NCBI GenBank assembly: GCA_044892525.1
Contig: CM097887.1
Coordinates: forward strand, 80,578,397 to 80,642,396
Direction of reading: 5' to 3'
Length of the DNA stretch: 64,000 bases
Source: Schmidtea polychroa
Taxonomy: Eukaryota
The notes under the pieces were generated by a model. It saw only the letters and a list, made by a program, of their open reading frames with translations, was not told where the DNA came from and did no database searches. This document shows positions 2,725-48,251 of the stretch, piece by piece (the stretch's first letter is position 1; each line of letters starts with the position of its first letter). The translations under genes and the position numbers were made by a program.

Positions 2725-4510
2725 ATATTACAGTTATAAATTATAAACATTTATAATTGATCATTTGCGGTGATTGATTTATATTTTTTGATTTAAATTT
2801 CATATTTTATGTACATAATTGGACTAGGATAAGGTAATGTCAACTAATAATGATATTTCTACGTTTGTCTAAAAGTTTGATGAGACGGGAAAATTGAAAG
2901 AAACGCAAAATAAATTTTCAGAAAATTCTAACGTTTTTTTATTTGTTTTAATTGTTAAATTAATTTATTATTATAATTGATTTTAAATATACTAAATTTT
3001 GGGCCATCAATTTTATTATCACCTTTAAATGATCAATTTTATTAATTTAATTATTTTATTCCTGTCATTAACTACTTATTAGTATTTTTTTACTACCTTA
3101 ATATTAGTATATTTTTAGCATTGTTACCTTATCCCTAGTACAAACGACGAGCTTTTGCAGAAGCAGCTTGAAGGACAACAGGAACAAGCTCGAAGTTACG
3201 AAATTGTTCGGTTGACCGGGGACATTGGTCTGAGAGATTATTCTGAATAATATAATATAAATGACAAAAGGTGCGTGGAAAAGTATGTAAAGTACAAATT
3301 TGTCGAAAATGCAAAATATTAATTAATTAATTGAACTAAAAACCCGTTAAGAAAATAAACGATTTAGATTTTTGAGGGTAGTTAGTTATAAAACCTACCA
3401 TAGAAACCCTGAACAACTATTAATAAACTTATTTTTTAAATGACAGTCGACGGATTTGTTGGGTTAAGATGGTTAAGAACAATAATGTTAGACATTATTT
3501 AATCCACAATCATTAATTATAAAGTTAGTTCTGGTAAATAAAGAAAAGTAACATCAAAATTTGTTTTTTTTGTCTTTGGTAAGGAAGAAGAAACTGAAAG
3601 TAGAAAGTGGAAAAGAGCACTAATTAGAAAATTTATCAAAGGAAGATTGAAGGCGTATCGGTCATTGTTAAAGGAAGATTATTATCATAAACAGATATTC
3701 TGTTTAATATTTGTAATAATAATAATATACATTGGTAGTGTTGATTCTTATTTATTGAACACGAGGAGTTAGATTATAATTATAATTAACCTACGTACAA
3801 TTAGCCAGTAAAAGATCAACACATATACAGGACATATACAACACATAATAAACCTTGCTCAAGCTGTGACCTGAGAAAAATTATACAAACCGTGTAAAGC
3901 TGTTTAAAGTTGCCCGAATGTCGAGGCAAATGACGGAACTCTGCAGTTGAGGACAGAGTTCAATAACATTAAATGTGGTGTGATGTTGACTTTGTTTTGT
4001 CTTATTTGATGAATGAAAATTGTGTTGGGCCAAGCTCCGAAGGTGTTGGAAAATACGAACCTAGGAAGGGATAGAGTAAAATAAAATAAAAACATATAAA
4101 AATACGAGAAACATAGGAGGAAACAAATTAAATATCCAGCAAAGAAATTAGAAAAACTAAATAAAATAACAAAACCTCTAAAGGAAAAATAAGACAAGAG
4201 GGAAGGCACCTAATAAACGACAGTAAAAGAAAAAAATAAAATAGCAGAAAATTTAAGAAAAATGAACAAAAGTAAAAGAAGAAAAACAAAATAAAAAAAA
4301 AAAAAAAATCATCCATAAGGCTAATTAAAACAAAAAATGAAGTTACAATAAAATAGCAACAAAACCACAGGAAAAACAGATAAAATAATAAAAAATAGGA
4401 AAATAAATAAAATAATAATAAAAATAGGAAAAAGTCATTAAAATACACCTGATTACATTAAAAAACATAAAAATTATAATAAACAATAATATTACATGCA
4501 AGTCGCGTCC

Positions 4511-4590
4511 TGATTGGACGAAAAGTAATATATAAAGAGCGACAAAAATCTGTAGAGTATCATTCTAACCCGAAACTACAGGTAAAATTT
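4511..4590 (+). promoter_or_regulatory. LTR promoter: inverted CCAAT box, TATA box, then a splice donor in the leader
   Basis: TGATTGG (4511), TATATAAA (4529), CAG|GTAAAA (4581/4582) inside a short duplicated motif. The same arrangement (TGATTGG, TATATAAG, duplicated motif with CAG|GTAAG) occurs in the solo LTR at ~44650-44780. Confidence 0.6.
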
Positions 4591-6842
4591 TATCCTTTAT
4601 ATAATCATTCTAACCCGAAACTCTACAGGAAAACTAAGAACCACTCGCAAGCACAGATTATTGAACCATATTCATTCATCGGATATCATATACATTTAAC
4701 GGAGATCGAATTCAGTTCAGTCGAACGAGTCTATCTAAAGAAAACTTATATTATTTTGATCTAACACCTTCGGAGATTTTTGGTAAATTATGTTTTAGAT
4801 TTTAGCATGATGATTTAAATATTTATTATGAATTTAAAAAGTCGTTTATAATTCAATAAATTTCATATTTTAAACGAAGGTGTTGCTTTCTCTCTATGAT
4901 GCTGGCGACGGCGTCCTCTGGAATCCGGGTATGATGCAGTTGAGTTTTCCGAACGTCCTACGGAGGGGAAATTTACGAATACGAACTCGAGAAATTGAAG
5001 TGATAGAACCAGCCCAGGATCCATATGAATTTAGAAACTAAAGTGATTACTTAATGAATACGAGATTTATGCTAACCAGAGTCATCATGCCCGGATTTCA
5101 AATGTCGTGGTCGCCAGGTGAACATTTATTTAATTGATTTTCTCATAATTCCATTATTTCTATATTGATTCACTGAATAATTAAATTGTATTGTTGCACA
5201 TTTATTGAGAATGGAGTTGCGATGAGACGGGTCGAGTCGTCCTTCACACCGGTCCAAGAGCAGTGGGCAGAGATGCGTACTGCCTTGGGTGGGTTGTGAG
5301 GAGCGAGGAAACCATGTGAGATTTAACAAATCAAGTAATTGATTCTTTCATCGAGTGTAATCCACCCATCTTAGTCGTCGAAAACCATCCAATGCAGAAA
5401 CTTCTGAGTGACATAGTTTGAATCAACGATACCTTGGGAACTCCAGGAGATATACCATTAAAACTATCATCAGCATTGTGTCCAATCACGTAATTAAATA
5501 ATCTTTGATTTTGAGCCATATTCGTCTTGCATTGAGAAAAGTGACTGTTAGAATGTCTGCCGGAAGGAGTTATTAATTTCGAGTTTTTACGAGAGATTCT
5601 CTGTACTAAGCCCATTTCGTATCTTACAATCTGAAGGTGCTTTGGAAGCTACACCGCCGGGAGGTTAGCGAATAGATCCATCGTCTTGCTTATCGTCGAC
5701 TCCGAGGAGACTTAATGATCGACCAACGTCTAGCCGCTGTCATTGATAATAGCTCGATTTAGACATGAACGTAAACATCTCTGGATAGTAGATTAAGACA
5801 CTGACTGTGAGTCCGAAAGAAACGGTCGCCAGCAACATCGAGTGAGCGTAGTAGACCGCCGGGAAATCGATTGATAAGATATCTGAAGCCTCAATTCCGA
5901 GCGAACGAGTTGACAGTCTTTATCTCAAAACCAATTAGTAGAGAAAAATCTAAATATAAAATCAATCTTATCTAGTAGATTCGCAATTAACCCACACAAT
6001 TAGATTCATGTGATTTCTGTGACACTCTCTCAGACTCCAACCTATCTAGAAAATCAGCCAGCGATATCATGTCTAGTGTGCAGATAGTGGATAGATTTAC
6101 ATCATAATTACATAATGGTAGCAGGGGAGATGGCTAGGCTACATGTACAATCCGATAGCGAGATTACGTCACATTGAATGGTAGAATTGCTGCCCAGTCC
6201 AAGAACACACATCGATGATAAATTGTACAATGCATGCATATGAACCGACCTGACGACATCTGTTAGCATACATAAAAAGAAAAACTAACACACCACTACT
6301 CACAAACAAGCGTCGTTATGACGACATTTATGTCGCAAGATTTAAGGTGATCAAATAGCAAATTATGATAAGACTTAAATTGAATTTTGCGGTTCTTTTG
6401 TGAAGCCGATCACGACGTTTAAAACCCAATAGTCACCAGTCATACCGAACTAGGTTTTTGCGACACAACTCGCGCGTAATTTCAGGAATATAGTAGCGCG
6501 GGGAGTGGGGATGCTATTGCTAGGGAAGGATAATTATAATAAATTCGACTGTGATAAATTAATAAAAGCACATTAAATAAAAATGGCCAATTTCAGAAAG
6601 ATAAACATAAAGTCAAAGTTATGATAAATGTATTATTTCGAGTAATTCCGTTTTCTTTTTTCTCTATCAGTATGGATGCTTGCGGACAAATGAGTGTAAA
6701 TGTTGACCAGTGATAAGGGTAAGTGGGTCATTGTCGAGTAGGATGATTGGAAATAGGGTAAAAATTGTAGTCAAAATTTGGAAACGACACGCCAACGATT
6801 TTTTTTTTAACTCTACAATTAACAAAACGTCTTGATCTTCAG

Positions 6843-7604
6843 ATGCCTGTTTCAACCGCTACGAACAAGGATCTTCGTCCATGCTTCTCCTGCGCAGATA
6901 AAAACGCAGACATAGCACAACTCCACTTATATATCGGGGCACTGAAAAAGAGAATTGATCTCTATGAAGGCACGTGGTTCTCCCCGCCACAGATGAAGGA
7001 GGAGCGCAGTAAAATTCTTCGGTTGGAACATTGCCGGGACAGCCTCCTAGAGGAGAGTCGCTGTCAAAGACTGACGATCAAGGCGCAATCGGAAGCCCTC
7101 CACAAGGTCTACACGGAGGCAGAATTGGCCAAACGGGTACGAGAATTTCCCGTCTTGGAGGCCAGCAATGTTTTTCCCACTCACCACCAAAGTACTTCCA
7201 CCGCTACAACCAGTTGTCTGGGGCACGGCTCCTATCTGCCGCCTGTTCCAGCACCGGCCTTATATAGTTGTCAGCCGCCGGTAGGTGGTCCGTCCGACCC
7301 TATCTTGGCTCCAGTTTTAGTGACATCAGTTACAGCACCCGATGCGGACAACCATCAACCACAGCGTAAAAGAAAACGGCCGACCCGAGCCGCCAAAAAT
7401 CAAAGACGTCGAGATGCAATCGCGGCTCTCGAGGCGTCGTTATCTGTGGCCAAGTCTTCTCTGGAGAAGTTATCGTCACTACCTTCTACCCCCACCAAGG
7501 AGATATTCCGGGTGATCTCGCCCGAAGGGGTCCAGCTCGTGCGAGACCGTCGGTTACCGGTCGACATCGACGAGATGATCGCCGAAGGGGAAGTTTTCCC
7601 ATAA
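6843..7604 (+). CDS. LTR-encoded 253-aa protein (CxxC + coiled coil, Arg-rich basic segment, acidic C-terminus)
   Basis: Intact in both LTRs. The N-terminal ~95 aa are conserved at protein level in the diverged solo LTR (46953-47345). AG acceptor directly before the ATG. Confidence 0.75.
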   Translation: MPVSTATNKDLRPCFSCADKNADIAQLHLYIGALKKRIDLYEGTWFSPPQMKEERSKILRLEHCRDSLLEESRCQRLTIKAQSEALHKVYTEAELAKRVREFPVLEASNVFPTHHQSTSTATTSCLGHGSYLPPVPAPALYSCQPPVGGPSDPILAPVLVTSVTAPDADNHQPQRKRKRPTRAAKNQRRRDAIAALEASLSVAKSSLEKLSSLPSTPTKEIFRVISPEGVQLVRDRRLPVDIDEMIAEGEVFP

Positions 7605-8145
7605 TTGGACATGTCGTTGACCCATCTCTCATCCGACGCGATCAAGCTCAACAATCTTTATAAATGACTTAGATGATGCGTGTTTGTACTCTCCTACGTG
7701 TTGTGATTCGGAAATTTGTGTTCATATGTATCCTCAATTTCATTAATATAATCATAGTATTCGTTGTGTTGTCCCGTAAAAGTTATAGAGTAATGAGTGA
7801 TGTCTTGATGAATGAATTGGAATGACCACTGGAGAATGTGGGTCGTCCCCTTGGACCAGGGTCGTACCGAGAATGCATGACGAGTAGGGGTAAGACCTTC
7901 TTAGGCACCGAGGAACCTGAACTGAGAGTGGGTCCGTAGTAGTCCTAAGGCAGGGGCTCACCTGCGGATCAACTCCGACCCGTGTGAGCAGCACCAACGT
8001 GGGTAGATCATCACGGGCTCACATGAGGGAATATTTGTAAATCATGCGGGTTATGTGGGGGAAGGGCCCCGAGCTAAAGGAACATGATGCCAGCTGCACT
8101 ACGAATGTCCGTTTGACTCCTCCCATATACGCGCAACATGATTTT

Positions 8146-8163
8146 TGGGGGCTCAGCCGGGAT
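8146..8163 (+). promoter_or_regulatory. Primer-binding site complementary to the tRNA-Pro 3' end
   Basis: TGGGGGCTCAGCCGGGAT matches the canonical tRNA-Pro PBS (TGGGGGCTCGTCCGGGAT) at 16/18 and lies 7 nt after the LTR end. Confidence 0.85.
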
Positions 8164-8629
8164 ATATATTGATTTGTTTGATTGTCTATTTTTGTGTTAT
8201 GATGTGTTAGATTAACAATTTAATTAATTATGATAAAAATGGAATCGGGGCTGAAACGAATTATAGTGCAATGAAATGATACGAACTGTCTGAGTTTGAA
8301 AGAGAGTATGTATGAATAAAAACGAACCTAAATGAGTTTGAATGAAAATAAGGTTGAATGAATGTGAAAGAGTGCGGTGAGAAAAGAAAACGGGAATCAC
8401 TTATTTTGTTTAGTTTAATTTATTAAATTAAAAAGAGGGATGAAAGGAAGTAATGATAATAAAAGTAAATGATTAAAGTGAAAAATATGACGAGGGAATC
8501 CCAAGGATGGAATAAAATACAAAAGTTAGAAACATTAACAATAAAAGTCAAACGAAAATTAAATACCAACCTGATAATATCATTAATAATACCCGCAAAA
8601 CCAATAATAACAACACATTTTTTTTAGAT

Positions 8630-9109
8630 ATGTCGGAAGCTAGAAAACATCTACAACAGCTAAGCAGATTCATCGACATAGAAAACGATTCTCTAAAGAC
8701 GTTAAGAGAAAAACTGCAACAAATAGAGACCCTAGAACAACAACGCCACGATGCACCTCTGATATCAAAACAAAATTATTTAACCAATAAACTGGGAGCA
8801 ACAAACACCGATACCGACTTGTCTACCCATTACCAATGGATGCAGCAACGACTCGACGACCCCGCTCTGAACATCGAATATGTGAGAATACGCGAACAAG
8901 TAAAAACTTTGTCTCAAAGAATACGAACATCGATAGTAGAGAAAGCAGCGGTCTTAAGAACCTGTAACATTTGTAAGACGCGACCTGCCAAAATTCTAAT
9001 TCTACCGTGTGGACACCTTAGCCATTGTGACGAATGTGCCGTCAGTTTAACGCATTGTTCTTTATGTGTATGTGTGATAAAGGAGAAGCACACGATTTAC
9101 TTCAGTTAG
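8630..9109 (+). CDS. Coiled coil + C-terminal IAP/MDM2-type C3HC4 RING finger protein (putative E3 ligase)
   Basis: CNIC...ILILPCGHLSHCDECAVSLTHCSLC...IYFS at the extreme C-terminus. No BIR domain. TTTTTTTAG acceptor 2 nt before the ATG. Confidence 0.8.
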   Translation: MSEARKHLQQLSRFIDIENDSLKTLREKLQQIETLEQQRHDAPLISKQNYLTNKLGATNTDTDLSTHYQWMQQRLDDPALNIEYVRIREQVKTLSQRIRTSIVEKAAVLRTCNICKTRPAKILILPCGHLSHCDECAVSLTHCSLCVCVIKEKHTIYFS

Positions 9110-9689
9110 CACGCGATTAGCACTCGGTGAAAGAATTGATCTGATTGACGATTTGACTAAATCCTTTATGTTTAATTGATGGGTCAATAATTTTTTAGTA
9201 AATGTGTATATTGCATGTGGCTTAAGCCAAATAATGAATAGAATGTTTTGTGTGTTCATTTTATTGTGAATTCAGTAACTTTATGATAATTTTCACCATA
9301 GAGAGAGAGCATCAATAAACTTAATTTAAACAAATAATATAAAGTGGAACTAGTCCCAACATAGGGTTAAAGGGGGAATAAACCGAGCCACCTTCGGGAG
9401 GTACGTTATACAAATGCCGTTTGGGAAGGGACAACCGATCACCCCGAGTAAGAGATGTAAGGCGAGGTACCATCGCGAATATTGAAAAGTTTCTGCGGTA
9501 TGGCTGATCACCATACCAATGTAGAAATGGATCAATGCGATCGTTTTGCGTTTTGAGCAAGGGGGGAAAGGGGAAACCTTCCAAAGCGGTACAGATTAAG
9601 TCGACAAATAAAAGTAAAAATAGGAAGATGACAGTGTAGAATAAAGACAGAAAAGGAACGGAAGCATGCAGAGTTTAGAGACATTAAGG

Positions 9690-10060
9690 CCGAGCTGTTG
9701 AAAAGTCCAGCCGGTCAGGGAAAATTGAAACTGAGCTGTAAAAAGTCCAGCCAGTAGGGGATAATAAGATCGAGTTGCTGAATAGTCCAACCGGTCAGAA
9801 GAAGAAGATTGAGCTGTTGAATAGTGCCAGCCAGTCGTAAGATCGAGTTGTTGAATAGTCCAACCGGTCAGAAGAAGAAGATTGAGCTGTGAATAGTGCC
9901 AGCCAGTCGTAAGATCGAGTTGTTGAATAGTCCAACCGGTCAGAAGAAGAAGATTGAGCTGTGAATAGTGCCAGCCAGTCGTAAGATCGAGTTGTTGAAT
10001 AGTCCAACCGGTCAGGAGAAGAAGATTGAGCTGTTGAAAAGTGCCAGCCAGTCGTAAAGG
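9690..10060 (+). repeat. Tandem repeat, ~72-73 bp unit made of two related ~35 bp subunits, about 4-5 copies
   Basis: Repeated GAGCTGTTGAATAGTGCCAGCCAGTCGTAAGATC / GAGTTGTTGAATAGTCCAACCGGTCAGAAGAAGAAGATT. Confidence 0.9.
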
Positions 10061-10773
10061 CCTAAAGTAATAGTGAGATAGCATTTAAGCTACAAGTTGA
10101 TAACATTTAAATTACTAGTGAGATAGAATATTAAAGATAGCTAGAAGCAAATTGAGTTTGAAATATGGAATTTGAATTTAGAAAGGATCAAACGAGCTCG
10201 TAAAAGATGATAGTAAAATTCTTTTAGTAAAGAAGGAGAAACGGAAAAGGAAAATGAATTAGGAATAATAGAAACAAAGAATAAGTATGAATAGATGATG
10301 AATCAAAGAGGAAATAATTAATTAATTAAAAGGGATCCCAGGTAAGTAGACAAAAGTTCTACAGAATTTTTTTGGTTTAAACCGGTTAAACGAATTTTGT
10401 TTTGGTTCCAGAGCAGAACCGAGTAAAAGGAAATAGAGATGAAAGATTAAATGAATAAGCGGAACCGCGCAAAAGGATTAAGGAAAATATGGGGGGTAAT
10501 AAGCAGTAACTGACAACGACCTATCGATATTATAAATGCTAACTATAGATAATTTATACGACTATATAGATAATTGTTACTACCCCAAATAGATAATTAA
10601 AAATCGACGAAAACTATGGGTTGATGGGTAATTATATTCCGCGGAGAAGTGTATGAGGGGAAATGAAGAGAAGCATAACAGAGGCCCAAAAACAGTGTCT
10701 GCGCTTGAATGTGGTAAAAAGGAATGATTGATTCGTGTAAGCAAATGCAACACGATATCATTTTTTCATTGTA

Positions 10774-11072
10774 GATACCCATCCAACCAAGTCAATTCAG
10801 AACCAGCTCAAAAGGAAGCCAGAGAATATACAAACAACCCAGGAAAAGCAATTCAGAACCCGCATAAAGAAAAACAAGCCAATCCGAACACGGAGGACGA
10901 CAACGACATCTTTACCTACGACGGAATTATCGAAATATCTAGCATCGACGTAATAGCAGCAGTCAATCAAGGACTCAGATATCTCCTCCGGAAATCAGCC
11001 GAGAAATTACGCGGAATATTCCTCGAAGGAAACACTATCAGAACCGAACTTGACCAATTCAGCAGCCGCTAA
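10774..11072 (+). CDS. Possible small accessory exon/ORF upstream of gag, function unknown
   Basis: Strong acceptor TTTTTTCATTGTAG at ~10773 followed by ~100 open codons with the element's A-rich composition. No recognisable domain. Confidence 0.3.
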
Positions 11073-11437
11073 CCGTAGAAAAATCCACGTGAAAAGACAG
11101 AAAAGAGTAAGAAAGAATCACGGATAAACCCAACCTTAGATCTTCAAGTAAGCCAGGAGACGTATTATTTTCAGGAGACGAATTAGATCAACTCAAAAGA
11201 GGACGATCATTTAGGCAGCAGAGAGGAATATCACAAGGAGCAAAAAGACCCCACAAAACACCGATATACGATCAAGAAAACCCCACAGCCGGACATACGC
11301 CCAGTCGATCTAGAAGTAGAGAAAGCCTATCCGATATAACAAACAACCTAACCGGGTCAACAGAAGAATTATCCGTCCATAGTTTAGCTACATCGCTGGA
11401 AAATTTAAAAGGAATAATAGAGTGTCAAGAACCAATC

Positions 11438-13366
11438 ATGACGAATGTGGTAAAAACCGACGAATATAAAGAAAAATTTAGAGGCGAACCATTCAACGGG
11501 AATGCGAACAAGTTGGCAACGTTCATAACAAATTTTGAAGTCTATGTCGATGTGTGTAGATGGACATCAGAAGCAATTAGCAAACGGATGCCGTTGTTTT
11601 TATGTGATAGCGCATTAGAAGTGTATCTAGAAGCAAAAGAAAGAAATACGAAGTTAGACAATTGGGAAAGCATCAAAACATTTTTGAGAAAAACATTCGG
11701 AGCCAGCAAACCAATAAATCAAGCCCTAGGAGAATTAGCGAGTAGAAAACAAAGAGCAAATGAATCCATAACGTTGTATGCGAGTGAATTGCGAAGATTG
11801 GCAAAGAAGGCCATGAACGGAAACTTGCCGGAGGAAAATTTAATTGGTTATTTCATAGAAGGACTGCGCCGAGAAGAGGTAAGGGCCTCGGTGGGATGTC
11901 AAATGTGTAAAACACTAGAGGAAGCCATAGATTGGGCCACGAGATGCGAACTCCACCTCCCGGCACTAATGAATGTCATGCAAGAGGAAGGAAGAATCGC
12001 AACAGCAACGGTAAAAACTGAAAATGGAGAGAACAGCAATCATGAACCAAAAATGAATCAGTTTATACCCGGTGCGCATCAAATTTTCAAACCACCGCAA
12101 GGACGATCAAATGGGAATAACAGTGAACGCAACAACCCGAACAATGGGAATAATTTTAATAATCGACGAAACACGAACGATAACAAACAATGCCGAACAT
12201 GCGGTAAACCAGGACATTGGGATAGAGATTGTTACCGAAACGCAAATTGCAATAGGTGTGGACGACGGGGACACACGGAAAATATATGCCAATTGAGAGG
12301 ATGTTTTAATTGCGGTCAACCAGGTCATATCTCAAGAGACTGTCGAGAAAGGAGCCAACAACAACGACCACCACAGCGAAATAATAACTATGCACCAAAT
12401 CCGCAACGACAAAGTAATCCTAGTGAGGGAAAGCAAATGAATGTGATGCAAGAAATTTCACAAATGAAGCAGATGATGCAACAAATGATGAGACCGAGAC
12501 AAGAGCAAGTACCACAACAAACCCAGAATATACGCATGATGAGGAGCACCGAGAATCTTAACAATTATGAAGTGCAACAACATGCACAAGAATGGCAAAG
12601 ACTACAAGCTGAAGAAGAGAGGATAAAAAGAGAGCGAATTCAGCAGCGACAAGAACAACCATTACGAATAAATATGATGAGAATGGTAAGGGAGATAAAA
12701 GAGCAATATTGTTACAATTACGGTAAAAATCCAAGAGTTGTACCTATGAGCGAACCAGAGAAACCGAAAGAAACAATTCCAGCAGCAAAAAAGGAAAATT
12801 CAACAACATCGCTAAAAGGAAATCAGAGAATTCAGAAAATATTTTGGAAAAAGATAAAAGATAAAATCGAAAGAGAAAATGAGAAAACAAAAACAGAAGC
12901 AGAAGCGGAAAATAACGAAAAGGAAAAACAGATTAATCATCTAAATCATGATATGATACGAGGATTAGACTCAGAGGAGCTAACGATACTCGAGAACAAA
13001 AAATTAAAGAAAGTACCAAGAATGAGAAATTTACGAATTAATATGATAAGGACAACAAAGAAGGTGTTGTCAACAGATGACGATGAGGATTATGTGAGTA
13101 GCCTTGGTGGAGAAATGTTACAGTTAAATGAAAATATCGACCAACTAAGAGAAAAGATCGGAGCAGATGAGGATGAAAGTGAAAGCGACGTAACAAGCGA
13201 AAGCGAAGACGAGAATATCGAAATGAAATTGAGAAAAGAAAGAGAAGAAGCAATAAAACAAGTAAAGGAAATACTTCCAGTGGTGGTAAGAAACCAGGAA
13301 TTCATTGACATCATACCATACAGACGCTTCACACAAAGGATAATGAAACTAGAAAGAAACGAATAA
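11438..13366 (+). CDS. gag: Gag: capsid-like domain, three CCHC zinc knuckles, Q-rich and acidic/coiled-coil tail
   Basis: FNGN...FITNFE, RKQRANESITLYASELRRLA...FIEGLR, and knuckles CRTCGKPGHWDRDC, CNRCGRRGHTENIC, CFNCGQPGHISRDC. Confidence 0.92.
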   Translation: MTNVVKTDEYKEKFRGEPFNGNANKLATFITNFEVYVDVCRWTSEAISKRMPLFLCDSALEVYLEAKERNTKLDNWESIKTFLRKTFGASKPINQALGELASRKQRANESITLYASELRRLAKKAMNGNLPEENLIGYFIEGLRREEVRASVGCQMCKTLEEAIDWATRCELHLPALMNVMQEEGRIATATVKTENGENSNHEPKMNQFIPGAHQIFKPPQGRSNGNNSERNNPNNGNNFNNRRNTNDNKQCRTCGKPGHWDRDCYRNANCNRCGRRGHTENICQLRGCFNCGQPGHISRDCRERSQQQRPPQRNNNYAPNPQRQSNPSEGKQMNVMQEISQMKQMMQQMMRPRQEQVPQQTQNIRMMRSTENLNNYEVQQHAQEWQRLQAEEERIKRERIQQRQEQPLRINMMRMVREIKEQYCYNYGKNPRVVPMSEPEKPKETIPAAKKENSTTSLKGNQRIQKIFWKKIKDKIERENEKTKTEAEAENNEKEKQINHLNHDMIRGLDSEELTILENKKLKKVPRMRNLRINMIRTTKKVLSTDDDEDYVSSLGGEMLQLNENIDQLREKIGADEDESESDVTSESEDENIEMKLRKEREEAIKQVKEILPVVVRNQEFIDIIPYRRFTQRIMKLERNE

Positions 13367-37597: not shown

Positions 37598-37851
37598 TTC
37601 CGAACCTCGAGATCATGTGACATCGACCATTCATAAACTTTGTGTGTATAAATCCGGTCACCTAAAGAGGCCACTGCTTGCTTATTTTTGTCCTTTTATC
37701 TGTTTAATTAAAGTATTATTTAGTTATTTTAATTTGATGTTTGTGTAGATTTTGATTGTGGGATTAGTTGTTATACTGAAAGAAGGTACGATTCGAATGT
37801 ACGATATTATGTGAATTGCGGGACGCAATTTTAACGGGCCCCGGAGTGATT

Positions 37852-40800
37852 TGTTGGGCCAAGCTCCGAAGGTGTTGGAAAAAACGAACCTAGGAAGGGA
37901 TAGAGTAAAATAAAATAAAAACATATAAAAATACGAGAAACATAGGAGGAAACAAATTAAATATCCAGCAAAGAAATTAGAAAAACTAAATAAAATAACA
38001 AAACCTCTAAAGGAAAAATAAGACAAGAGGGAAGGCACCTAATAAACGACAGTAAAAGAAAAAAATAAAATAGCAGAAAATTTAAGAAAAATGAACAAAA
38101 GTAAAAGAAGAAAAACAAAATAAAAATAAAAAAAAAATCATCCATAAGGCTAATTAAAACAAAAAATGAAGTTACAATAAAATAGCAACAAAACCACAGG
38201 AAAAACAGATAAAATAATAAAAAATAGGAAAATAAATAAAATAATAATAAAAATAGGAAAAAGTCATTAAAATACACCTGATTACATTAAAAAACATAAA
38301 AATTATAATAAACAATAATATTACATGCAAGTCGCGTCCTGATTGGACGAAAAGTAATATATAAAGAGCGACAAAAATCTGTAGAGTATCATTCTAACCC
38401 GAAACTCTACAGGTAAAATTTTATCCTTTATATAATCATTCTAACCCGAAACTCTACAGGAAAACTAAGAACCACTCGCAAGCACAGATTATTGAACCAT
38501 ATTCATTCATCGGATATCATATACATTTAACGGAGATCGAATTCAGTTCAGTCGAACGAGTCTATCTAAAGAAAACTTATATTATTTTGATCTAACACCT
38601 TCGGAGATTTTTGGTAAATTATGTTTTAGATTTTAGCATGATGATTTAAATATTTATTATGAATTTAAAAAGTCGTTTATAATTCAATAAATTTCATATT
38701 TTAAACGAAGGTGTTGCTTTCTCTCTATGATGCTGGCGACGGCGTCCTCTGGAATCCGGGTATGATGCAGTTGAGTTTTCCGAACGTCCTACGGAGGGGA
38801 AATTTACGAATACGAACTCGAGAAATTGAAGTGATAGAACCAGCCCAGGATCCATATGAATTTAGAAACTAAAGTGATTACTTAATGAATACGAGATTTA
38901 TGCTAACCAGAGTCATCATGCCCGGATTTCAAATGTCGTGGTCGCCAGGTGAACATTTATTTAATTGATTTTCTCATAATTCCATTATTTCTATATTGAT
39001 TCACTGAATAATTAAATTGTATTGTTGCACATTTATTGAGAATGGAGTTGCGATGAGACGGGTCGAGTCGTCCTTCACACCGGTCCAAGAGCAGTGGGCA
39101 GAGATGCGTACTGCCTTGGGTGGGTTGTGAGGAGCGAGGAAACCATGTGAGATTTAACAAATCAAGTAATTGATTCTTTCATCGAGTGTAATCCACCCAT
39201 CTTAGTCGTCGAAAACCATCCAATGCAGAAACTTCTGAGTGACATAGTTTGAATCAACGATACCTTGGGAACTCCAGGAGATATACCATTAAAACTATCA
39301 TCAGCATTGTGTCCAATCACGTAATTAAATAATCTTTGATTTTGAGCCATATTCGTCTTGCATTGAGAAAAGTGACTGTTAGAATGTCTGCCGAAGGAGT
39401 TATTAATTTCGAGTTTTTACGAGAGATTCTCTGTACTAAGCCCATTTCGTATCTTACAATCTGAAGGTGCTTTGGAAGCTACACCGCCGGGAGGTTAGCG
39501 AATAGATCCATCGTCTTGCTTATCGTCGACTCCGAGGAGACTTAATGATCGACCAACGTCTAGCCGCTGTCATTGATAATAGCTCGATTTAGACATGAAC
39601 GTAAACATCTCTGGATAGTAGATTAAGACACTGACTGTGAGTCCGAAAGAAACGGTCGCCAGCAACATCGAGTGAGCGTAGTAGACCGCCGGGAAATCGA
39701 TTGATAAGATATCTGAAGCCTCAATTCTGAGCGAACGAGTTGACAGTCTTTATCTCAAAACCAATTAGTAGAGAAAAATCTAAATATAAAATCAATCTTA
39801 TCTAGTAGATTCGCAATTAACCCACACAATTAGATTCATGTGATTTCTGTGACACTCTCTCAGACTCCAACCTATCTAGAAAATCAGCCAGCGATATCAT
39901 GTCTAGTGTGCAGATAGTGGATAGATTTACATCATAATTACATAATGGTAGCAGGGGAGATGGCTAGGCTACATGTACAATCCGATAGCGAGATTACGTC
40001 ACATTGAATGGTAGAATTGCTGCCCAGTCCAAGAACACACATCGATGATAAATTGTACAATGCATGCATATGAACCGACCTGACGACATCTGTTAGCATA
40101 CATAAAAAGAAAAACTAACACACCACTACTCACAAACAAGCGTCGTTATGACGACATTTATGTCGCAAGATTTAAGGTGATCAAATAGCAAATTATGATA
40201 AGACTTAAATTGAATTTTGCGGTTCTTTTGTGAAGCCGATCACGACGTTTAAAACCCAATAGTCACCAGTCATACCGAACTAGGTTTTTGCGACACAACT
40301 CGCGCGTAATTTCAGGAATATAGTAGCGCGGGGAGTGGGGATGCTATTGCTAGGGAAGGATAATTATAATAAATTCGACTGTGATAAATTAATAAAAGCA
40401 CATTAAATAAAAATGGCCAATTTCAGAAAGATAAACATAAAGTCAAAGTTATGATAAATGTATTATTTCGAGTAATTCCGTTTTCTTTTTTCTCTATCAG
40501 TATGGATGCTTGCGGACAAATGAGTGTAAATGTTGACCAGTGATAAGGGTAAGTGGGTCATTGTCGAGTAGGATGATTGGAAATAGGGTAAAAATTGTAG
40601 TCAAAATTTGGAAACGACACGCCAACGATTTTTTTTTTAACTCTACAATTAACAAAACGTCTTGATCTTTAGATGCCTGTTTCAACCGCTACGAACAAGG
40701 ATCTTCGTCCATGCTTCTCCTGCGCAGATAAAAACGCAGACATAGCACAACTCCACTTATATATCGGGGCACTGAAAAAGAGAATTGATCTCTATGAAGG

Positions 40801-41968
40801 CACGTGGTTCTCCCCGCCACAGATGAAGGAGGAGCGCAGTAAAATTCTTCGGTTGGAACATTGCCGGGACAGCCTCCTAGAGGAGAGTCGCTGTCAAAGA
40901 CTGACGATCAAGGCGCAGTCGGAAGCCCTCCACAAGGTCTACACGGAGGCAGAATTGGCCAAACGGGTACGAGAATTTCCCGTCTTGGAGGCCAGCAATG
41001 TTTTTCCCACTCACCACCAAAGTACTTCCACCGCTACAACCAGTTGTCTGGGGCACGGCTCCTATCTGCCGCCTGTTCCAGCACCGGCCTTATATAGTTG
41101 TCAGCCGCCGGTAGGTGGTCCGTCCGACCCTATCTTGGCTCCAGTTTTAGTGACATCAGTTACAGCACCCGATGCGGACAACCATCAACCACAGCGTAAA
41201 AGAAAACGGCCGACCCGAGCCGCCAAAAATCAAAGACGTCGAGATGCAATCGCGGCTCTCGAGGCGTCGTTATCTGTGGCCAAGTCTTCTCTGGAGAAGT
41301 TATCGTCACTACCTTCTACCCCCACCAAGGAGATATTCCGGGTGATCTCGCCCGAAGGGGTCCAGCTCGTGCGAGACCGTCGGTTACCGGTCGACATCGA
41401 CGAGATGATCGCCGAAGGGGAAGTTTTCCCATAATTGGACATGTCGTTGACCCATCTCTCATCCGACGCGATCAAGCTCAACAATCTTTATAAATGACTT
41501 AGATGATGCGTGTTTGTACTCTCCTACGTGTTGTGATTCGGAAATTTGTGTTCATATGTATCCTCAATTTCATTAATATAATCATAGTATTCGTTGTGTT
41601 GTCCCGTAAAAGTTATAGAGTAATGAGTGATGTCTTGATGAATGAATTGGAATGACCACTGGAGAATGTGGGTCGTCCCCTTGGACCAGGGTCGTACCGA
41701 GAATGCATGACGAGTAGGGGTAAGACCTTCTTAGGCACCGAGGAACCTGAACTGAGAGTGGGTCCGTAGTAGTCCTAAGGCAGGGGCTCACCTGCGGATC
41801 AACTCCGACCCGTGTGAGCAGCACCAACGTGGGTAGATCATCACGGGCTCACATGAGGGAATATTTGTAAATCATGCGGGTTATGTGGGGGAAGGGCCCC
41901 GAGCTAAAGGAACATGATGCCAGCTGCACTACGAATGTCCGTTTGACTCCTCCCATATACGCCCAACA
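37852..41968 (+). repeat. 3' LTR (4117 bp)
   Basis: TGTTGGGC...GCCCAACA, followed by TSD ATTG. Confidence 0.95.
40673..41434 (+). CDS. LTR-encoded 253-aa protein, 3' LTR copy
   Basis: Translation identical to 6843-7604. Confidence 0.75.
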   Translation: MPVSTATNKDLRPCFSCADKNADIAQLHLYIGALKKRIDLYEGTWFSPPQMKEERSKILRLEHCRDSLLEESRCQRLTIKAQSEALHKVYTEAELAKRVREFPVLEASNVFPTHHQSTSTATTSCLGHGSYLPPVPAPALYSCQPPVGGPSDPILAPVLVTSVTAPDADNHQPQRKRKRPTRAAKNQRRRDAIAALEASLSVAKSSLEKLSSLPSTPTKEIFRVISPEGVQLVRDRRLPVDIDEMIAEGEVFP

Positions 41969-42344: not shown

Positions 42345-43920
42345 TGTTGGGCTGAAACCGAGAACTGAGAGTTTGTTTTAATCGATCGAAAACACCTAAC
42401 ACAAAAACCGCAAAGTTGAAAAAATTTATGATCAAGGTTTAATGTAAAATAAATAGAATAAATTACATAACACATTAGGAATCAATAAACCCCGTATAAT
42501 AGAAAAGAGATAAATAGATTTAACAAAAAAATTGAACACTTAAAAATTTCGATAGAAAAATAATAAAATGTAAAATATAATTATTTGAAAATTATTTAAA
42601 CGATATAAAAATTAAATCGTCAAAATAATAAAATTAGTTAACATTATGTAAATTGTAAAGTTTATAGAATTAAATGGTTAGAATTATGTAACTTATTAAA
42701 TTTAAAGAATAAAAGTGTTTAAATTAATAAAAATTAAAATAACTCAAATTATTTAAATTATAAAATTTATAAAATTAAATTATTAAAATTAATAAAAAAT
42801 TAAATAATTAATTAAATTAATGAAATTAAAAATAAATAAATAATTGCACACATTCATGCATGTATGCAAAATTAATTCAAAATTTCTCGCACTCTAATTG
42901 GATAGAGTGGCAGAGAATGCATGAATGCGCATTCAAAATCAGTATAAATACTGATTACAAATTCATTTGAAAAAACTTTTTTTCAACACCACAACATAAT
43001 TTGCAGACAGTAAACATATGCTCTCAGTTTTCGATTTTATGCCATCGTGGATTTGGTAATTTATTTTTGTTGTAATTTTTATGAAATGATTTAATCTAAT
43101 AAATTTTACATTCAATCAATTTTTAGTTAAATTTTCTTTTGTTGTTCGTTTTGATTGTATAATTTTCATGCAGGTTTTAAGTTTTAGATAATAATTTTAT
43201 TAGGTTCAGTTTTTACATTCATTAATTTTGATTAGTAGTTACGGTGGGACTGAGATCCAGTAGGCCACAGCTTAAGGGACACTAGTTGTTCCTATTGCGA
43301 GTAGGTCCACTGGCTTTTCAGATTCACATGGATTGATCGGGCCATAACGAGGAGGCTTCTCCCCTGGTCCGTCTCCGTAAGTATTTTCTAGTCGGAGATA
43401 GGTTTGACTTAGAAATACAGGCAGATCCCTGCGCAAAATTTTTTGAAGAATAATTTAAATATTATGGGAAGTGTGGATTAACTTGGAAATAAGGGCCAAT
43501 CCCTGCTCAAATTTTTTGAAGAATAATTTGGATATTATAGGAAGTATAGAACAATAATTATTAGATGGAAAATAAGGGCGGATCCCTGCGCAAAATTTAT
43601 AAGAGAACAATTGGAAATACCCGTAATTGAGGACCACAAATGATCTAAAAACAGCATACATAGTGAATAATGACGTAAGACCTTCTATCGGCAGTCTTGA
43701 ACTCGAAAACAAAATAAAATGGGGAGTAGTTTTAGTAATAGAGCTCACCTGCTCATTGTTTTTTCACCTTTGTGTACAGTACCAACCTGGTCGTCGCCAT
43801 GGGTACACAAATGGTTTAAATTGCAATAGTCATGGAGGTGCTTAGGAAAGAGTCGAACGATTATGATTACCCCTAACGTATTTTAAAATGTAAAAATGAC
43901 ACACCCCTAAGTAACCAACA
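42345..43920 (+). mobile_element. Solo LTR (1576 bp), related family
   Basis: TGTTGGG...ACCAACA with 4-bp TSD TTAT on both sides. TATA-like CAGTATAAAT at ~42941. Shares the 3' motif blocks with the other LTRs. Confidence 0.8.
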
Positions 43921-44323: not shown

Positions 44324-47300
44324 TGTTGGGCTGAGTCGAAGGGTATCCAAGAAATTAGGTTAAACATAATTAAATTAAAATAAAAAGAAAACAAACAAAT
44401 TTAAGAATAAAATAGAATAGGATATAAGAAAAATAAAAAATTAGAAAATAGGAATTAAAACAAAAAAATATAAAAATAAGGAAAATTAAAATAGGACAAT
44501 AGAATGACAAAAAATAACGTAAAATGTAGTAAATAATAAAGAAATTAAAGAAAATAAATAAAAACACAATAAAAATAAAGAAAATAGGAAAAAATAACTC
44601 AAAAACAAGAAAAATAAATTAAAGCAATAAAATTAAGCGGCACTCAATTCTGATTGGTCCGCACACATCAAAAATTAATATATAAGGAAACACAAAAATT
44701 ACAAACTTACAGTTAAACAACCAACTTTACAGGTAAGACAAATTTTAACAGTGACAGTTAAACAACCAACTTTACAGGTAAACAGCAGCAACGTACGAGA
44801 ATCAATCTAGAAACCAGGAGATATTATCAAACAGTTAACAATCGACGTAAATTTCGAGTAACCATTTATTCAATTCGATACCTTCCGACTCAGCCTAAAA
44901 ATCTATACAAATTACTTGGTAAGGAATTTTTCGATTTATACTTTATCTAAGTAATAGTAGTCATGTAATTTTATGAAATAATTATAAATTTAAACTGAAA
45001 ACAGTTGTCCTTTCGTTTGATTCCTAATGATAAATTTGCTAATTAGAGGATTCAGTTATTTAATAAATGAATTATTATGAACTTTTTATGATTGATTTTT
45101 ATGCATTATTATTTAATTCCGAGAAACGTGGCGTTGAGAAACTCCATGTCATGGTGTGAGGTGCCTTCGGGAGCTCAGCCGGTGGACATGGCGTTTTTCA
45201 ATCACGCAGCTGATTCGGGCCGTAATGTGGGGGCTTCCTCACGGGTCCGTCGCTGAAGATGTGACTAAAATACGTGGACGATACTGTAGAGAGATGGTAA
45301 CTATCAAGCAATGAGGAGTGTAGTCATGTGAGGAAAATCTTGTTCGAGAGTTCGCATAGTGACTGAGGGCGTCATACTATCGTCTTTAGCAAATTGAAAT
45401 TGTTACTATCATCTAAAGATCTATATAGGACTCTCCTTTAAATCAGTCTGGGCACCATTTGTCGCATATTCTCTACGTTCGTGATTCCTCTCGAAATTAT
45501 TCCTGAAACCGTCAACCTACCAACTTTCATAACTGCTATTTTTATCACGTGCAATCAATTTTGATACGTTCCTCTAAAACCTACTTGTGGTGGATTGTGG
45601 AAAACAAATAGTTCTCAAAAATAATAAACCATGAAATAATAACGAATCTGATCAGGAAAATATATTTAAAAAAAAAACACTTAAATAAGTCATTTCTTTA
45701 TATATCGAATGCCAAACGTCTGTGTCAACTGATGCAAAGGTATGGGGGAGATAACTGATCCGACAGACCCTCCATGGGAGTAAAATCCGAGTCTTAGAGG
45801 TGTCACAGAGGATGATAGAATACCCGCATTTCGTCGAATTGTATTTCCAGCGATAGCTAATAAATTTCCAACCCGATATAGATAGTGGGCATGTTGATAA
45901 TGATAAAATCCATGAGGGGAGTAGAAATTATAGCTTGGATAGTTGACCAATTTGTCTACGAAATGAATGCCATCCAGGAACAACGATACGCAAAATCTTC
46001 CTATGCAAAATTTCCATGAGAGATAGAAATTCAACACAGCGTAATATAACATCTGATGATTCATGCAAGCTGCCGAATAGGATAAGAGTCTCACGAAGTG
46101 AGTACCCGCACACATGTGTAAATGCACACATTGCAAGTTCTAATAACCACAGACCACATGCTAGTGCTCACCAATAATAACACAGATATCCCTAGCCGTA
46201 ATTCTACGAGTCTATCTTCCAGGTGACCCATTTATTAAGATCGCATAGTCATCTAACCCGATAGTAGATAATTCACCACGAACGGCTAACGTGAGAAAAG
46301 TCCACCGGGTGTGTCAGATGAAAATTTCGGCTATTTACCGAAAGCACTAGACATGAGTGATGATAACATGAGTCACCAACAACTCAATAATTTATGTTAA
46401 AATAGTAAATAAATGTGAGATTTGAAAACAAAATTATAATAAAATATAGACAATATAATCGAAAGCCTAAATAAAATACAAATAAATTCAACTCAATTAA
46501 TTCAAGTCTATTAATGGAACTGCTAAAATTTAATATTTTCAATTAATAATAAATTACAACCAACTTATCTAATTATCTATAAAATCATTATAATGATTAG
46601 CTCAATTTTCACTTAGTGATTGTATAGTTCGGGTTAAATTTTCAATGCTATTTGTCTCTTCAAGGAAATTTCCGTCATCAATAATTCCTCTCAAACATGC
46701 AATTTTCATTTTCTTTAACAATGATATACAACCTTCGTTAAGTAAAGCCTTATGTTGCCAGTTGGTTTTCTAGTGAATAAACACCTAGAGCCCGCATAGG
46801 TCGATGGCATAGGAAATCCCTCTTGATAAATAATCCGTTTTTCTTTTCCGGTAAAAATGTCTAATACTGATTAACGAATAGTGGCGGAAGATGATGATTT
46901 TCTAAACTTGATTTATCCCATTTAGTGTTATTACTATTCTTAGCTAGCAGACATGTTACCCAATGCAAAAACCGTCCTCAGGCCCTGCTTTTCTTGTTCC
47001 GACAAGAACGCAATAATCAAGGACCTACAGACCCAGATCGGACGGTACAAAAAGAAAATAGACGAGTTAGAGGGGACATGGTTTAGTCCCGCCCAGATGA
47101 AAGAGACCCAAAAGAAATTACACCGAAGTGAACATTGCCGGGACGCTCTGATCTCCGAGAGTCGTGCCCAAAGAAGTTTGATCAAGGAGCAGTCCGAGGC
47201 GCTGCATAAAGTGTACATCCAGGCTACGGCAACTAGGAAGATAGTGAAAGTCCCCATCGGTGAAGCTGACAATCTCTTTCCGACCCACCATGATACTTCG

Positions 47301-48251
47301 GCCAAATCATCGCCCCCTTCGAAAAAACCTGCCGGCCGTGCGTAGAAACGCAACTCTGGCCAGAGCAACTATAGGTAGGTTTTGTGGGAAATAGTCGGGT
47401 ACTGCCTAACGTCGCCTCTACATCGGTGGTAGCCCCAAACAATTCATCGACCAACAAACCAAAGCGTCGGCAGCTATCGAGGGCCGAACGCAAAAGGAAA
47501 CAGCGTGAGCGAATAGCCGCAAAGCAGTCCAAGCAACTGCCGGACCTCGGGAGTAATGTAAATAACGTCCCTGCTGTAATTGACCTAACAACAGGAACAC
47601 CAGGGCGGATCATATCTGCCGCTGGGGTGACGTGGGAGGAAAACGCCTCCGAATTCTTCGATTTGGACGAGTTACTCGCCGACTCCGAGTGGGAAAATTG
47701 AGGATTTTCCCGTGAAGTGACCTCATCCTTCGGAGAGTCCTGAATCAACTAACATCATTTCCTGTCTTTATGTTCTCTTATTCTGATTCTGATGTATGAG
47801 TTACGACGCGCCTGTATTACAATGTTTGAAATAAACAATTTTTGTCTGTATACGGGTTTTGTTTTTCGTTCATAAGGAATTTACATTGAGTGGTAAATGG
47901 CATTGAGTGTTTTGAGATTCGAGGAGTATGGTCCAGTTGCAATCCAAATCAAGAGTATGGCGACAGGGTGACAGAATGAGTAGACGTAAGTCCTTCTATC
48001 GGCAGTCAGGGGTAGGAATTCGAGGCCTCAGTAAGGAGTAGTCCGAAGATGGTGGCTCACCTGCTTACTGGCGTCTCGCCGGCATAGCACAGTTCCAACG
48101 TGAAGTAATTCACGGGTGCTATGTTGGAGTATAAATTATGCACGGGCCCTGCTCGGGGTGACACAGTAATGACAGATATAATTGTAACGGGCATTCATCC
48201 CCTAGGCTAGAAAGTTGAACTAAGGGTGGTCAACCGAGTAGTGCCCCAACA
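44324..48251 (+). mobile_element. Solo LTR (3928 bp) of a second giant-LTR family
   Basis: TGTTGGG...CCCCAACA with 4-bp TSD CTTG on both sides. Same layout as the main LTR: A-rich start, CCAAT/TATA, donor, internal ORF, 3' motif. Confidence 0.9.
46953..47701 (+). pseudogene. Homologue of the LTR-encoded protein, split into two out-of-frame ORFs (46953-47345 and 47384-47701)
   Basis: LRPCFSCSDKNA...EGTWFSPAQMKE...EHCRDAL..ESR.QR..IK.QSEALHKVY matches the main LTR ORF. The second part carries the Arg-rich segment and an acidic end. Confidence 0.7.

Follow-up and report, generated by a model that had tools for sequence, protein, structure and literature searches.

In the planarian Schmidtea polychroa, the long terminal repeats (LTRs) of giant gypsy elements of the Burro type carry, near their 3' ends, a structured RNA of ~140 nt that is composed of three covarying domains, is found upstream of a primer-binding site (PBS) for tRNA-Pro, and occurs in thousands of copies in the genome. 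As judged from the sequence, this motif is probably a cis-acting replication signal. More specifically, we favor, with somewhat less than even confidence, the view that the three-domain structure, with its predicted place in U5, would act in cis on the full-length RNA, controlling the loading of tRNA-Pro and the start of reverse transcription. An earlier note on this DNA had described a stem-loop with a bulge in three diverged LTR families, along with two conserved blocks upstream of it; the stem-bulge-stem proved to be the third domain of the larger RNA, and the upstream blocks are parts of the two further covarying domains. The relevant features of the window, i.e. the entire 64-kb stretch of DNA that was analyzed, are as follows.

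4023..8138, + strand: 5' LTR of family A, Burro-type giant gypsy element, with TG...CA ends and an ATTG target duplication
6843..7604, + strand: LTR-encoded open reading frame of 253 aa (by translation), with an Arg-rich tract and an acidic tail
7745..7750, + strand: AATATA, a variant poly(A) signal by prediction, with a GT-rich tract behind it; the presumed cleavage site would put the motif in U5
7887..7910, + strand: domain I, with a 3-bp covarying stem, an internal loop, a CC/GG stem, and a loop of UUCUA plus 1-2 nt
7913..7919, + strand: linker GAACCYG, putatively complementary to the tRNA T-arm (PAS-like) or to the PBS
7923..7976, + strand: domain II, a long covarying helix that is interrupted by a U/CAC 1x3 internal loop and ends in a variable apical hairpin
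7982..8024, + strand: domain III, with an outer stem, an 8-nt bulge (7990-7997), an inner hairpin, and a single bulged G (8016)
8025..8138, + strand: rest of U5 to the LTR end, with a further stem predicted in single-sequence folds
8139..8145, + strand: spacer between the LTR end and the PBS, 7 nt (families A-C; 8 nt in family D)
8146..8163, + strand: PBS, complementary in 18/18 positions to the 3' end of tRNA-Pro(UGG) with CCA added
37814..37851, + strand: conserved hairpin (37814-37830) and PBS-complementary segment (37836-37846) at the polypurine-tract site
41717..41854, + strand: motif copy in the 3' LTR of element A
43672..43811, + strand: motif in solo LTR B
47983..48123, + strand: motif in solo LTR C

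The LTRs A, B, and C of the window are real and mutually distinct. Element A spans 4023-41968, and its 4.1-kb LTRs (4023-8138 and 37852-41968) are 99.8% identical, with the 4-bp target duplication ATTG; B (42345-43920) and C (44324-48251) are solo LTRs with the 4-bp duplications TTAT and CTTG, respectively. The interior of element A encodes a zinc-knuckle Gag, a mononegavirus-like fusion protein that lies in frame ahead of protease, reverse transcriptase (RT), RNase H, and integrase, and finally ankyrin and RING frames, this copy being broken by stop codons and an apparent non-LTR insertion. The giant size, the long LTRs, and the position of env in frame between gag and protease place the element in the Burro type. 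Indeed, the planarian Burro/GYPSM1 elements show the same layout, with a length above 30 kb, LTRs of 4-5 kb, CCHC knuckles in Gag, an env of the mononegavirus type placed in frame between gag and protease, ankyrin repeats, and a MATH domain that is found here in family D (PMC6431247); the available part of that account deals with proteins only and mentions neither the LTR RNA structure, nor the primer tRNA, nor the missing polypurine tract. Elements of this group are abundant and PIWI-silenced in planarians (PMC8532177). Family D is a fourth, diverged type with 5.2-kb LTRs, and its marker block has 1700 matches in the genome. A family B copy, with LTRs of 1.6 kb and a total length of ~15.5 kb, contains a gag-related frame and no RT, and apparently is a non-autonomous derivative. 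Within element A, the segment 29865-36386 holds two long frames with a second RT and zf-RVT and is probably an inserted non-LTR element; the spacing of the LTRs is 33.8 kb in element A as compared to ~26.3 kb in close copies. A pyrimidine tract followed by AG is seen at ~8630, just before the RING ORF, and again at ~10775, upstream of gag, which suggests that both may be expressed by splicing.

The three domains differ in the way they vary between families. The internal loop of domain I reads GUAAGW/CA in families A-C, pair 8:28 alternates between C-G, G-C, and A-U, and position 5 of the loop is A in 55 of the 57 representatives, with later loop positions variable, although the family A copy of the window has U at position 5; given the conserved A and the variable positions that follow, we take this loop to be T-loop-like. 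The loop bases UUC can pair with GAA two bases past the domain, each of the pairs being possible in 51-56 of 57 rows, mostly through wobble variants and with no double change, so that a pseudoknot between the loop of domain I and the linker appears possible. The linker contains GAACCC in 29 of the 57 representatives, C-type families lacking it. Domain II, which holds GCTCACCTGC (7956-7965), displays the strongest covariation of the fold. A likeness of its apical loop to the constitutive transport element of MPMV was considered and dropped, as the loop varies freely between families. The U/CAC internal loop is conserved and invites comparison with the C-loop module, which needs a trans Watson-Crick/Hoogsteen C-A pair in an asymmetric loop (PMC6237812); the closing pair gives A in family D alone and G in families A-C. 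For domain III, the earlier note had called the bulge invariant AGYWCCAA, which proved too strict: among the 33 representatives that were not picked for a changed bulge, that pattern matches 19 and CCAA matches 31, the core being A-N-N-W-CCAA. Of the 4632 hairpins, 130 differ at the first C of the bulge; these come from various families and look like decay. Upstream of domain I, a hairpin at 7845-7865 includes a GGACC block that is found again in LTRs of types A, B, and D; the idea that its loop is an anticodon mimic was dropped, as the loop is not conserved in B-D. By eye, the Pol III B-box consensus fits neither domain I nor the linker.

All strings that had been reported for the three stem-loops and for both upstream blocks were found in their places. 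The two blocks are, as described, spaced near-constantly, at 66, 68, or 69 nt and 34, 35, or 36 nt, and within the 64 kb they occur four times and no more, each time on the + strand (7890/7956, 41720/41786, 43675/43743, and 47986/48055), the second of which is the 3' LTR copy and was absent from the earlier list. The GTAAG block, said to be conserved, is present in 40 of 57 representatives and absent from family D. The motif is indeed non-coding, with stop codons in 8 of the 9 frames translated across it, the exception being one frame of copy C. Throughout the genome, pattern counts of 2641 and 3939, against 0 for the reversed-pattern controls, are far beyond chance, and domain III hairpins number 4632, against 166 for the reversed control. 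A search that started from the PBS gave 22 distinct stretches (types A-C, 12; type D, 10), in each of which the motif was recognized by eye upstream of the PBS, and a covariance model confirmed it in each of the 8 of these that were scored. According to the model, the motif is present once per LTR, with none in the internal pieces of the B and D copies or of element A. Metagenome contigs yielded 0 matches; viral contigs gave 120 short-pattern matches, and the best of the 80 scored by the model reached 19 bits, as compared to 59-155 bits for full-length true copies, which points to chance. Most of the 120 listed matches of an RT search were merely 45-54% identical.

The covariation was assessed on two alignments. 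In a structure-blind MAFFT alignment of 25 representatives of less than 90% identity (26 clusters from 91 matches, one false match taken out), 90.2% of the 794 cells are paired, against 33-43% in slid controls, 23 of the 32 pairs show double changes, and 0 of 500 shuffles reached the observed values. Under a tree-simulated null, a test over all column pairs of this alignment yields 2 significant pairs, and a test restricted to the proposed set yields 6 of 32; for the model-fitted alignment (78 hits, 4 poor ones taken out, 57 representatives), the respective numbers are 3 and 12 of 31, the within-set figures being optimistic because the structure was proposed from the same sequences and the second alignment leans to the structure. 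The covarying stems thus hold on the structure-blind alignment and against the tree-based null. Under the same null, no significant covarying pair was detected outside the proposed helices, so that no pseudoknot is proven. On the + strand, G-U cells exceed A-C cells by 99 to 28 in 40 rows (59 to 28 if one invariant U-G pair is disregarded); therefore the sense strand is favored as the folded strand, in agreement with the original description of a plus-strand RNA fold. Single-sequence folding z-scores for the whole motif are modest (-1.4, -1.1, and -3.3). Comparison with Rfam gave no meaningful match, the best E being 0.098 in the whole window, off the motif, and 0.63 or worse on the motif regions, which bears out the view that the motif matches no known ribozyme or other Rfam family.

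The position of the motif within the LTR is informative. In 17 of 40 representatives, the signal AATAAA occurs 101-200 nt ahead of the motif, no 50-nt bin elsewhere containing it in more than 4; others have variants of the signal at that position, and the nearest candidate in family B is ~570 nt upstream. From this clustering, we infer that the motif lies in U5. With poly(A) cleavage placed upstream of it, the motif would adjoin the PBS only in read-through transcripts of the 5' LTR. The fold as a whole is 110-260 nt, and the stem-bulge-stem 110-170 nt, from the PBS. The usual spacing between an LTR and its PBS is a few bases, shorter than the 7-8 nt seen here, and a spacer of this length implies that end processing may be unusual. 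The PBS was compared with the tRNA genes of the same genome, its last base distinguishing Pro(UGG) from Pro(CGG). Among the first 100 listed of 386 sites, 95 are of the Pro(UGG) type and 5 of the Pro(CGG) type, so that Pro(CGG) appears to prime as well; 616 of up to 2190 tRNA-Pro gene matches are non-UGG. This skew is to be read with the reservations that the listing pattern required T after the site, that the preference may reinforce itself, that the copies are not independent, and that the number of genes need not reflect the level of the tRNA. For tRNA-Pro(AGG), the search pattern had no gene match in the genome. The tRNA-Pro(UGG) genes form a 475-bp tandem array, and the tRNA-Pro(CGG) genes alternate with tRNA-Arg(CCU) in a 442-bp array. 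The search for families that use a different primer found none, and the changed-bulge hairpins at the loci read had no PBS within 260 nt.

Two lines of evidence argue for a replication signal. The family B copy, which was read in two pieces, has neither RT nor the LTR ORF and still keeps the motif, the PBS, and the 3' element described below. Furthermore, the motif follows the replication enzymes: the RTs of A and D are 89.8% identical, whereas the LTR-encoded proteins are 24% identical over 82 aa (38% between A and C). The LTR protein (6843-7604, and ~46955-47701 in LTR C, where the ORF is broken) starts with a CxxC and has a predicted helical region; it belongs to no Pfam family and has no homologue at E<=0.001 in the database search, and a search with it for further families returned close copies alone.

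Under the primer-loading scheme, only read-through RNA from the 5' LTR would carry the fold beside the PBS. The exposed bulge CCA-A, a proline codon with a purine, may pair with the UGG anticodon loop of tRNA-Pro, the GAACCCG linker would cover the PBS beforehand and then pair with the T-arm strand that is freed upon PBS annealing, and domains I and II could serve as a scaffold for RT or Gag. CCA-A with its 3' purine is displayed in the bulge in 31 of 33 representatives, and the PBS is that of tRNA-Pro. Folding predictions for 12 U5-PBS regions leave most of the bulge unpaired in 11 and engage most of the first half of the PBS in pairs, the linker being the partner in several cases. The complementarities of bulge and linker to the tRNA are not significant by the shuffle test: a match to a conserved 7-mer as good as that of GAACCCG is obtained with 5.6% of 1000 shuffled tRNAs, GAACCCG also matches a tRNA-Arg control, and 92.6% of shuffled tRNAs equal the best 4-mer match, which is a match other than CCAA. 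Besides, CCAA is just as complementary to the UUGG with which the PBS begins and to the one that opens U3.

Several known RNA systems offer parallels. In HIV-1, the primer is contacted by the A-rich loop at its anticodon and by the PAS at its T-arm, and these elements, like the predicted PAS of HTLV-1, are upstream of an 18-nt PBS, as is the Burro motif (PMC11251516). The Burro linker would, like the HIV-1 PAS, be a complement of the 5' T-arm strand of the primer, with a match in about half of the representatives, and the Burro bulge, like the A-rich loop, is complementary to the primer anticodon. Compared with the retroviral PAS, the Burro fold is much larger, multi-domain, and 110-260 nt away from the PBS, and its role in primer activation is putative. 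A second parallel is with the T-box, where the specifier of stem I presents a codon in a side bulge with a 3' purine and the double T-loop has the consensus AGAGA/UGxRA (PMC7583486). The Burro motif likewise displays the codon of its partner tRNA in a bulge with a purine, with T-loop-like and C-loop-like modules nearby; in contrast to the T-box, it belongs to a eukaryotic retroelement and has no AGAGA/UGxRA double T-loop, antiterminator, or T-box match in Rfam. Its loop is UUCUA and the neighboring strand is not conserved in family D, so we do not count it as a T-box riboswitch. The hepadnavirus epsilon consists of a lower stem, a bulge, and an upper stem with one unpaired base, and its bulge templates a primer that matches the minus-strand acceptor, the RT bearing a terminal protein. 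Domain III shares the order of lower stem, bulge, and upper stem with one unpaired base; however, a full tRNA PBS exists here, no terminal-protein domain was detected in the Pfam scans, and the LTR of family D ends in CCACCA while its bulge stays CCAAC. Finally, the Ty1 5' pseudoknot and CYC5/CYC3 and the bipartite PBS of Ty3 are also structured cis RNAs near the PBS (PMC4974528, PMC5371799). As in the Burro elements, an RNA signal is kept in elements that borrow proteins, and 5'-3' pairing is possible; the likeness is one of description, no sequence or fold similarity being seen. Thus, structured 5' leaders are already known as a kind, since leaders with annealing, dimerization, and packaging signals are common to Ty1, Ty3, and HIV-1, whereas this particular fold is not in Rfam. 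In the literature covered, which stopped short of the original Burro paper, supplements, and Repbase, we found no description of the fold and no covariation-supported primer-side leader for an animal gypsy element.

At the other end of the internal region, no polypurine tract precedes the 3' LTR in any of the 4 families, the 30 nt before the LTR containing no purine run longer than 4 nt (longest 3-4). Instead, this site is occupied by a hairpin of 7 bp and a segment whose complementarity to the PBS extends over 8 bp in A and B, 12 bp in C, and 13 bp in D, a combination with 1153 matches in the genome and 0 in the control. The segment resembles the acceptor end of tRNA-Pro, and its distance of 7-9 nt from the LTR mirrors the 7-8 nt PBS spacer. 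In Ty3, a true polypurine tract, which the Burro-type elements lack, exists together with a bipartite PBS (PMC5371799), and in Ty1 the ends pair directly (PMC4974528). The missing tract raises a separate, testable question on plus-strand priming. One could envisage a scheme for both ends, in which a T-box-like U5 reads the anticodon of tRNA-Pro(UGG) through its codon bulge and delivers the tRNA to the PBS, and the acceptor-like 3' segment replaces the polypurine tract; taken jointly, these two parts make an improbable proposal, with roughly the standing of a long shot. Were it true, both DNA strands would be primed in a way undescribed for LTR elements, and if the bulge reads the primer anticodon, riboswitch-style tRNA recognition would be linked to retroelement priming. 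The motif comes in thousands of natural variants and is short enough for direct probing.

Of the three candidate roles put forward in the earlier note, a packaging or priming signal fits best, given the predicted location in U5 beside the PBS and the retention of the motif without RT and LTR ORF. The packaging half of this alternative, in which the fold is a packaging signal or a Gag/nucleocapsid recognition signal that would mark read-through RNA, the unpaired bases being protein contacts, is compatible with primer loading rather than exclusive of it, and we regard it as possible but on the doubtful side. It would explain why the motif is kept in a copy that lacks RT and must borrow proteins, zinc-knuckle Gag is encoded in families A and D, and signals for annealing, dimerization, and packaging cluster in the structured 5' ends of Ty1, Ty3, and HIV-1 (PMC11381356, PMC4974528); nevertheless, there is no conserved self-complementary loop, 6-nt palindromes being found in 4 of 57 and 2 of 57 apical loops, and the evidence from the motif fits Gag no better than RT or the tRNA. 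The second candidate, a TAR/RRE/RxRE-like element through which the Arg-rich LTR protein would either help transcription past the 5' poly(A) site or promote the export of RNA in unspliced form, was weakened and now appears improbable, slightly more so than the scheme for both ends. The Arg-rich tract and acidic tail of the LTR ORF (RNA binding being putative) and the location of the motif 100-200 nt past the predicted poly(A) signal are consistent with such a role, but the RNA does not evolve with the protein, the motif being kept where the protein is 24-38% identical or, in the B copy, absent; moreover, a read-through signal within the LTR would presumably act at the 3' LTR too. A circularization of the RNA in the manner of Ty1 CYC5/CYC3, in which the bulge CCAAC-R would pair with the UGUUGG that opens U3, and the PBS with the segment preceding the 3' LTR, seems to us very unlikely. 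It has a precedent in Ty1 (PMC4974528), the LTR starts with TGTTGG in 4 of 4 families, family D keeps CCAAC despite its different LTR end, and between the pre-LTR segment and the PBS there is a complementarity of 8-13 bp. Yet no covariation links the partners, both being near-invariant for other reasons (the integrase site and the tRNA match), and no helix between the bulge and the 3' end is among the 8 longest helices of each family.

The third candidate, a new class of self-cleaving ribozyme that would process LTR transcripts, is less likely still. It might be suspected from the compactness of the motif, its several near-invariant unpaired blocks, the possible pseudoknot, and the superficial similarity of domain I to P3/L3/P1.1 of HDV. 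Because of that resemblance to the HDV core, the HDV-like reading was tested specifically. The HDV topology is a nested double pseudoknot in which the P2 helix closes the fold. In domain I, the first helix has only 3 bp, and there is no conserved P2-like helix, the longest run being 3 bp or less in 43 of 57 representatives. HDV-like ribozymes also have an invariant U and G in loop III (PMC3386971); here the U is kept, and a G at the matching position is found in 2 of 57. With the failure of these signature tests, and with no match to an Rfam ribozyme (including hammerhead, twister, pistol, hatchet, and hairpin) even at E<=10, the ribozyme suggestion was left without positive support; in addition, cleavage in U5 would be expected to part R from the PBS. 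Least probable of all, to the point of being hardly credible, is the reading in which the stems are secondary and the conserved blocks are DNA-level sites or splice donors (GUAAG in sense orientation, the reverse of CTCAC in antisense orientation). Both blocks fit the established 5' splice-site consensus, and acceptor-like sequences precede the RING ORF and gag. Still, GUAAG is lost in family D, the better antisense donor CTTAC is near-absent, with C at that column in 55 of 57, and the compensatory changes together with the G-U excess on the + strand require a folded sense strand. In the contigs of three runs guessed to be RNA and one other run, none of the 15 joints listed, out of 31 in the region 4000-11500, starts at either candidate donor, which bears neither way.

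Two minor observations concern the remainder of the window. A single contig of a run guessed to be RNA, which derives from a diverged copy, shows a T-run before position 4845, as an antisense poly(A) tail would give. The segment 49043-64000 contains a Polinton/Maverick-like element with long terminal inverted repeats, an integrase, an A32-like ATPase, and TBP-like and RING frames.
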